Shown here one piece after another: positions 6,424-6,936 of a stretch of DNA of 64,000 bases; position 1 is the first letter of the stretch, and every line of letters begins with the position of its first letter. Both the position numbers and the translations under genes were made by a program. A model generated the notes under the pieces. The model worked only from the letters and a program-made list of their open reading frames with translations, was not told where the DNA came from and searched no databases. Source of the DNA: Escherichia coli (lineage in GTDB: Bacteria; Pseudomonadota; Gammaproteobacteria; Enterobacterales; Enterobacteriaceae); assembly GCF_003334355.1 (NCBI RefSeq), contig NZ_QOWP01000014.1; one strand, written 5' to 3'.

Positions 6424-6936
6424 TTAGCTGAGGCGTTGAGGGCCAGCACGGATGCCTTGCGCCTGGCTTATCCAGACGGGCGTGCTGAATTTTGCTTGTG
6501 GGGTAAAATGCGCATAATCAATGCGATAACCCTTTTCAGACGGCGTGCCTTCCTGGGTCAGCAGCGCGCTGAGCGTATCCAGTAATGCAAGATGTTGCGC
6601 CTGAAGAGGCAAGGATTCTTCAGCAACGGGCAGCGTTTGCGGTGCCATTGCGAAGGAAAGATGACGGATTACCGTGCGAATGGCATGTTGATGCCAGTAA
6701 TCAACGGAATAGTTCGAATTCGGGCGGCGCGTGTTCGCTTCCAGCAAGGCCAATTGACCAAAGTTAACTTTGGCTGAAGGCTCGTGGTTGCGGGTTGTCG
6801 CTTTTGCGGGCGCGTTTGGTTCGGTGGCGTTGCTGAGCGCAGGCAAACCTAAACTCGCCGCAACCATCCCTAATAAGAGATGCGGCCAGAAGTAGCGTTT
6901 ACCAAACTGTCGCCAGCGCGTCAGTATTCCACTCAC
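6424..6936 (-). CDS. secM: Secretion monitor SecM (translation-arrest leader regulating secA); GTG start
   Basis: 170-aa frame from GTG 6934-6936 ([10 protein letters not shown]...); arrest motif [17 protein letters not shown] at C-terminus; track ORF over-extended upstream. Confidence 0.9.
6439..6489 (-). other. SecM ribosome-arrest peptide coding segment ([17 protein letters not shown])
   Basis: Exact arrest motif read from the translation. Confidence 0.85.

Follow-up and report, generated by a model that had tools for sequence, protein, structure and literature searches.

The locus raised three questions: whether the reading frame directly upstream of secA in the 64,000-nucleotide stretch of Escherichia coli DNA that was analysed (the window) is an intact secM, where its translation begins, and how its product could control secA. 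The secM-secA pair is among the best-studied systems in which a nascent peptide controls the expression of a gene. The gene was identified as secM, which encodes the secretion monitor and is the leader gene of the secM-secA operon on an E. coli-type chromosome, and we assign this reading, with unmasking of the secA Shine-Dalgarno sequence (SD) included, a probability of roughly 0.97.

Identity, neighbourhood and start codon of secM

Coordinates are those of the window; the evidence for each feature is given in parentheses.

6424-6936, minus strand: secM coding sequence, 170 codons plus TAA (translation, NCBIfam NF002799, Pfam PF06558, RefSeq)
6936-6934, minus strand: GTG start codon of secM (RefSeq and K-12 annotation, profile boundary, related loci)
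6937-7089, minus strand: spurious 5' extension of the mechanically called reading frame (no profile coverage, unconserved, TTG in a U-tract)
6363-6423, minus strand: secM-secA spacer, 61 nt (coordinates)
3657-6362, minus strand: secA coding sequence, 901 aa, the regulated gene, start ATG 6362 (ORF list, RefSeq)
7088-7140, minus strand: intrinsic terminator of lpxC, stem CGACUGG...CCAGUCG and nine U at 7096-7088

Translation of 6424-6936 on the minus strand gave a product of 170 residues ending at a TAA stop (6426-6424, minus strand), and the span assigned to the feature in an earlier note on this DNA is exactly the secM coding sequence, stop codon included. The NCBIfam equivalog profile NF002799 ('secA translation cis-regulator SecM') matched the product with 231 bits (E = 8.2e-69; curated cut-off 100 bits) over profile positions 1-168 of 169, and Pfam PF06558 (SecM) matched over positions 1-146 of 147 (E = 1.4e-57). 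The DNA was 99% identical to secM of K-12 MG1655. Together, the two E-values and the DNA identity put the match far beyond chance. The 901 bases around secM had a match in 5,425 of the 5,426 complete E. coli genomes, and the annotated secM coding sequences of K-12 MG1655 and of strain 203740 mapped exactly onto 6936-6424 (in the RefSeq annotation, secM at 1765-2277 of locus L001 corresponds to 6936-6424 of the window, with the secA start at 6362). In the solved structures of SecM-stalled ribosomes (PDB 9vvi, 8qoa and 3jbv), the arrest sequence of the nascent chain is identical to that encoded here. The earlier note's claim of a SecM upstream of secA is borne out by these homology scores, by the identical RefSeq annotation and by the structures; the alignment to SecM that it had proposed as a check gave the NF002799 and PF06558 matches and identity to K-12 at 168 of 170 residues. 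Nothing speaks against the identification.

The next gene downstream of secM, on the same strand, is secA, with lpxC, ftsZ and ftsA lying upstream, and the order lpxC-secM-secA is annotated in K-12 and in the top genome matches listed. A promoter and terminator scan of 6250-7300 found no terminator-like site between secM and secA on the minus strand, and gave no informative secM promoter. The lpxC terminator was missed by the consensus terminator scan; the fold of 7080-7170 had a free energy of -30.3 kcal/mol (z = -6.09), and 0 of 200 shuffled sequences were as stable.

At the Rfam gathering threshold, no family covered the secM-secA junction. Elsewhere in the window, a full-length match to PssrA (RF02797, 'plasmid-encoded Shigella sRNA A') was found at 9328-9417 on the minus strand (105 bits, gathering score 69), sitting exactly on the chromosomal junction of the ftsA stop and the ftsZ start. 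A match to STnc40 (RF02057) at 3612-3681, minus strand (85 bits), overlapped the secA 3' end and the spacer between secA and mutT. Four matches to naRNA4 (RF02564) were obtained (3015-3092, 3132-3208, 47966-48031 and 54977-55055), two of them between yacG and mutT, in the spacer that follows closely on the secA operon. Rfam also detected three landmarks expected in E. coli: the leucine operon leader (30919-31068, plus strand), SgrS (37048-37274, minus strand) and a TPP riboswitch (39031-39130, plus strand). They agree with a segment of chromosome extending from the zapD/secA region across the cell-division cluster (lpxC, ftsZ, ftsA).

The start of the gene was the point on which the mechanical ORF list and the annotation disagreed. 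The mechanical ORF spans 6424-7089 and starts with TTG at 7089. Upstream of 6936, the in-frame start candidates back to the stop TGA at 7107 were TTG 7089, GTG 7011 and CTG 7008; an in-frame ATG, sought over the same interval, was absent. The earlier note had preferred GTG 6936 to an upstream ATG of the ORF track. Its choice of GTG 6936 agrees with the annotation, the profiles and the related loci, and its upstream ATG has to be corrected, since the mechanical ORF begins with TTG.

If the mechanical list were right, the true gene would be the 221-codon ORF from TTG 7089, or would start at GTG 7011, and GTG 6936 would be an internal codon. The in-frame GTG 7011 and CTG 7008 do leave room for a longer product, and yet this reading is very improbable. 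Both family profiles start at or after GTG 6936: NF002799 begins at residue 3 of the ORF from that codon (residue 54 when counted along the long ORF), and the match to PF06558 spans residues 75-218 of the longer product. RefSeq and K-12 annotate GTG 6936, and TTG 7089 falls within the lpxC terminator's U-tract. A revised secM start, defining a 37-residue signal peptide, is attributed to Sarker et al. 2000 in PMC6993859 and PMC10987492.

Related loci argue in the same direction. Complete upstream sequence was present in 83 of the 92 secM-secA loci listed; among these 83, the homologous codon was GTG in 62 and TTG in one (L121). An ATG one codon later was seen in 16 of the loci listed, 14 from Photorhabdus or Xenorhabdus and two from Providencia (L017, L052). 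Among the matches listed, 14 related loci carry an in-frame stop directly before the GTG, so that no N-terminal extension is possible there. The in-frame peptide upstream of the GTG varies between genera (RDGNN, SGGKN, YVVEQ, APAEK), whereas the sequence is conserved from the GTG on. The annotation, the profile boundaries and the comparative data thus support GTG 6936 as the start of secM, and the value of the present analysis lies in this correct annotation of an intact secM-secA unit that starts at GTG 6936 and not with the longer mechanical ORF.

The secM genes of Morganella (L021, L050, L082, L109) have no ATG, GTG or TTG at the homologous codon, where GGA AAC ACT ATT is found; translation there must therefore start elsewhere or at an unusual codon.

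Signal peptide, arrest motif and stall site

The following features of the encoded peptide were placed on the window.

6936-6826, minus strand: signal peptide, codons 1-37, of an atypical long Sec type (identical to K-12)
6825-6823, minus strand: codon 38, ACC (Thr), GCC (Ala) in K-12; first residue past the signal peptide
6489-6439, minus strand: arrest motif F150-P166, 17 residues (exact match; the same as the chain in 9vvi, 8qoa and 3jbv)
6444-6442, minus strand: GGC, codon of Gly165; P-site codon during the stall (sequence, PMC10951299)
6441-6439, minus strand: CCT, codon of Pro166; A-site codon during the stall (sequence, PMC10951299)

Residues 1-37 were 100% identical to those of K-12 SecM, where they form the secretion signal according to PMC6993859, citing Sarker et al. 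2000. By this likeness, the N-terminal Sec signal peptide of the window SecM is predicted to be residues 1-37.

The arrest motif is defined as F150xxxxWIxxxxGIRAGP166 (PMC10987492, PMC10951299). Translation placed the exact 17-residue motif at residues 150-166, as the earlier note had read it; a six-frame search of the 64-kb window found it once, and a six-frame search with the degenerate motif F....WI....GIRAGP gave no second match. Pro166 is followed by the residues QRLS and then by the stop codon. A scan of one genome per species returned at least 119 matches to DNA encoding WIxxxxGIRAGP, and 92 of the matches listed were secM-secA loci of Enterobacterales. In these listed loci, the secM stop lies 3-8 codons past the Pro, with secA close behind.

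[quoted passage not shown] A stall at the Pro codon, as the earlier note put it, is thus correct for the A site (6441-6439); as a statement about the P site it does not hold, the P-site codon being that of Gly165 (PMC10951299). We take the stalling itself, the P- and A-site state and the release by export from the literature. Because the motif is identical to that of K-12, the window allele, with its two substitutions (A38T and T170S), would be expected to stall.

The two substitutions were weighed as possible signs of a decayed, non-functional allele, since A38T falls at the cleavage site of the signal peptide. None of the 5,426 complete E. coli genomes contained a 41-mer centred on the A38T base; a control 45-mer adjoining it was present in 5,423 of the 5,426. 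The source genome therefore lies outside that collection, or the base is a private SNP. This rarity is the point in favour of decay. Signal peptidase I tolerates Thr at +1 of the cleavage site, and A38T is probably a private and neutral change. Ser170 is common in E. coli and E. albertii as well as in most Enterobacteriaceae; its G at 6428, where K-12 has C, pairs with C 6383 and so adds a G-C pair to the helix described below instead of removing one. The frame, the start, residues 1-37, the arrest motif, the stop, the spacer and the SD are all intact and as in K-12, and loss of function through these two changes has next to no probability. The gene is a textbook SecM arrest peptide, intact, ordinary and already known.

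RNA structure at the secM-secA junction

In the published model, a stem-loop sequesters the secA SD, the ribosome stalled on secM disrupts the stem-loop, and the stall is relieved when the nascent chain is exported (PMC10987492, PMC6993859). The earlier note's claim that the stall exposes the secA ribosome-binding site repeats this model, and the helix that the model requires was found in the window.

6440-6427, minus strand: 5' arm of the helix, second base of codon 166 to the end of codon 170 (fold, recoding test)
6384-6371, minus strand: 3' arm of the helix, GCGGGGCGUUUGAG, containing the secA SD core GAG (fold)
6393-6379, minus strand: local hairpin CUCCGC-AAC-GCGGGG (constrained folds), its 3' arm common to the long-range helix

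The 13-pair helix 6440-6427 / 6384-6371 was present in both the minimum-free-energy and the centroid folds of the RNA 6500-6335. The SD core GAG (6373-6371), 8 nt before the secA ATG, is paired to secM codons 166-167. Three segments were folded as free mRNA; the GAG had an unpaired probability of at most 0.01 in two of them and of 0.06-0.11 in the third. When the 5' arm was masked in constrained folds, the stability fell from -15.4 to about -9 kcal/mol and the accessibility of the GAG rose to 0.1-0.4; the helix was replaced by a hairpin (6393-6388 / 6384-6379) and weak A/U pairing.

Selection on codon choice for this pairing was tested directly by enumerating every synonymous version of codons 166-170 and the stop. 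The SD opening energy of the native sequence was 5.29 kcal/mol, compared with a mean of 2.82 ± 0.77 kcal/mol over all 5,184 synonymous versions, and 0.56% of these recodings reached a value as high as the native one. In this folding model, the 3' codons of secM appear strongly biased towards burying the secA SD.

Conservation of the helix was seen in pairing more than in covariation. Across 69 Enterobacteriaceae species, 87% of the helix cells were paired, versus 33-56% in registers slid by 1-3 columns. Covariation in the MAFFT alignment of the 69 species was not significant for the helix (two double-sided cells, with shuffles equalling the observed value in most trials), and RNAalifold did not recover the helix from the alignment, giving a different consensus that was very weak, at -3.7 kcal/mol. 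Coding and the SD constrain both arms, which leaves little variation from which covariation could arise.

A partition-function model with a masked ribosome was applied to the 92 loci listed. The median SD opening energy fell from 3.7 to 2.6 kcal/mol, and a drop of at least 2 kcal/mol was obtained in only 21 of the 92. With 60 nt of secM RNA upstream free to re-pair with the SD, the opening energy at the window junction went only from 5.6 to 4.75 kcal/mol. The gain was modest and inconsistent, and it depends on the extent of upstream secM RNA allowed to re-pair across the ribosome, so that the model is given little weight. All bases of 6500-6363 are identical to K-12 except 6428.

Insertions of about 120 nt were observed in the secM-secA spacers of Citrobacter freundii M-21 and Morganella psychrotolerans DI-3 (L099:679-896, L109:1393-1627). 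They fold strongly and lie inside the loop of the regulatory helix, with both helix arms retained, and they look like repeat elements.

The mechanism that would follow can be anchored in the features read from the window itself: its sequence, the family to which the product belongs, the position of the start codon, the order of the genes, and the helix with its codon-level optimisation. Translation would begin at GTG 6936, the first 37 residues serving as a Sec signal peptide, and the nascent chain in the exit tunnel would then block peptide-bond formation and stall the ribosome. The stalled ribosome should cover the mRNA from 6440 to about 6429, which is the 5' arm of the helix; from the general size of a ribosome footprint we infer that it must do so, as the arm begins one base past the P-site codon. 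With the 5' arm occupied, the 13-pair helix could not form, the G-rich part of its 3' arm may refold into the local hairpin at 6393-6379, and the freed secA ribosome-binding site would permit initiation at ATG 6362. Working Sec machinery would pull on nascent SecM and release the stall, so that a secretion defect would mean a longer stall and more SecA synthesis.

The stall might instead serve mainly to hold the secM-secA transcript at the membrane or translocon, where SecA would be made on site, with exposure of the SD secondary. A role for SecM in localisation has been put forward, and the partial and variable gain in SD accessibility in the masked-ribosome model would suit it. As the main function we consider it unlikely, since SD unmasking is given as the mechanism in PMC10987492 and PMC6993859, and the SD-burying codon bias (top 0.56%) needs a regulatory helix as its explanation. 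Localisation and unmasking are compatible and not exclusive, and SD unmasking is kept as the preferred reading of the stall.

The hairpin that replaced the helix in the constrained folds was followed across species by folding each sequence separately, independent of the alignment. It formed in 51 of 52 distinct sequences from the 69 species, with at least 10 different stem sequences (CUCCGC/GCGGGG, CUCCGA/UCGGGG, CUCCGU/ACGGGG, CUUCGC/GCGAGG, CUGC/GCAG, CUACC/GGUAG and others). This result is suggestive, the sequences being phylogenetically related. Covariation of the hairpin by a fixed-column count was not significant, probably because loop indels shift the register. The hairpin 6393-6388 / 6384-6379 could be a conserved, compensating competitor of the helix for the G-rich tract, making the junction a true two-state RNA switch; we regard this as a tentative proposal and rather doubtful. 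If it were true, the hairpin would actively hold the SD open during the stall, instead of the helix merely melting. The local hairpin may already have been described in the older literature on secA regulation.

Present results leave the understanding of SecM unchanged. The conservation of the start codon, the SD-burying 3' codons and the hairpin kept by differing sequences are small confirmations of the accepted model.

Comparison with known arrest peptides

The closest known system is SecM of K-12 (b0097, NP_414639.2), of the long type, which likewise has 170 aa and a GTG start and is identical at 168/170 residues. The arrest motif, the spacer, the SD and the secA start are identical, and the gene order lpxC-secM-secA is likewise shared. 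The window differs from it by A38T, private among 5,426 complete genomes, and T170S, common outside K-12; in the 901 bases compared, there were also five silent changes in secM and five base changes elsewhere.

Short-type SecM (NF038363, or PF10818 'SecM_small') is likewise encoded upstream of secA, as a leader with a signal peptide and, at its C-terminus, an arrest sequence (PMC10987492). The distance from the signal to the arrest sequence is about 131 residues in long-type and about 71 residues in short-type SecM (PMC10987492). Membership of the short type was rejected for the window SecM, which scored 26 bits against NF038363, below the cut-off of 45, and 15 bits against PF10818 (i-Evalue 0.04); it belongs to the long class.

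More distant are the other 'monitoring substrate' arrest peptides, VemP (acting on secDF2), MifM (yidC2) and ApdA, ApdP and ApcA (RAPP/RAPG). They share with SecM the logic by which a ribosome is stalled by the chain that it is making, and the stall unmasks the SD of a downstream protein-localisation gene (PMC10987492); they differ from it in sequence, host and target gene. At their C-termini, the RAGP motif of SecM and the RAPP motif are related.
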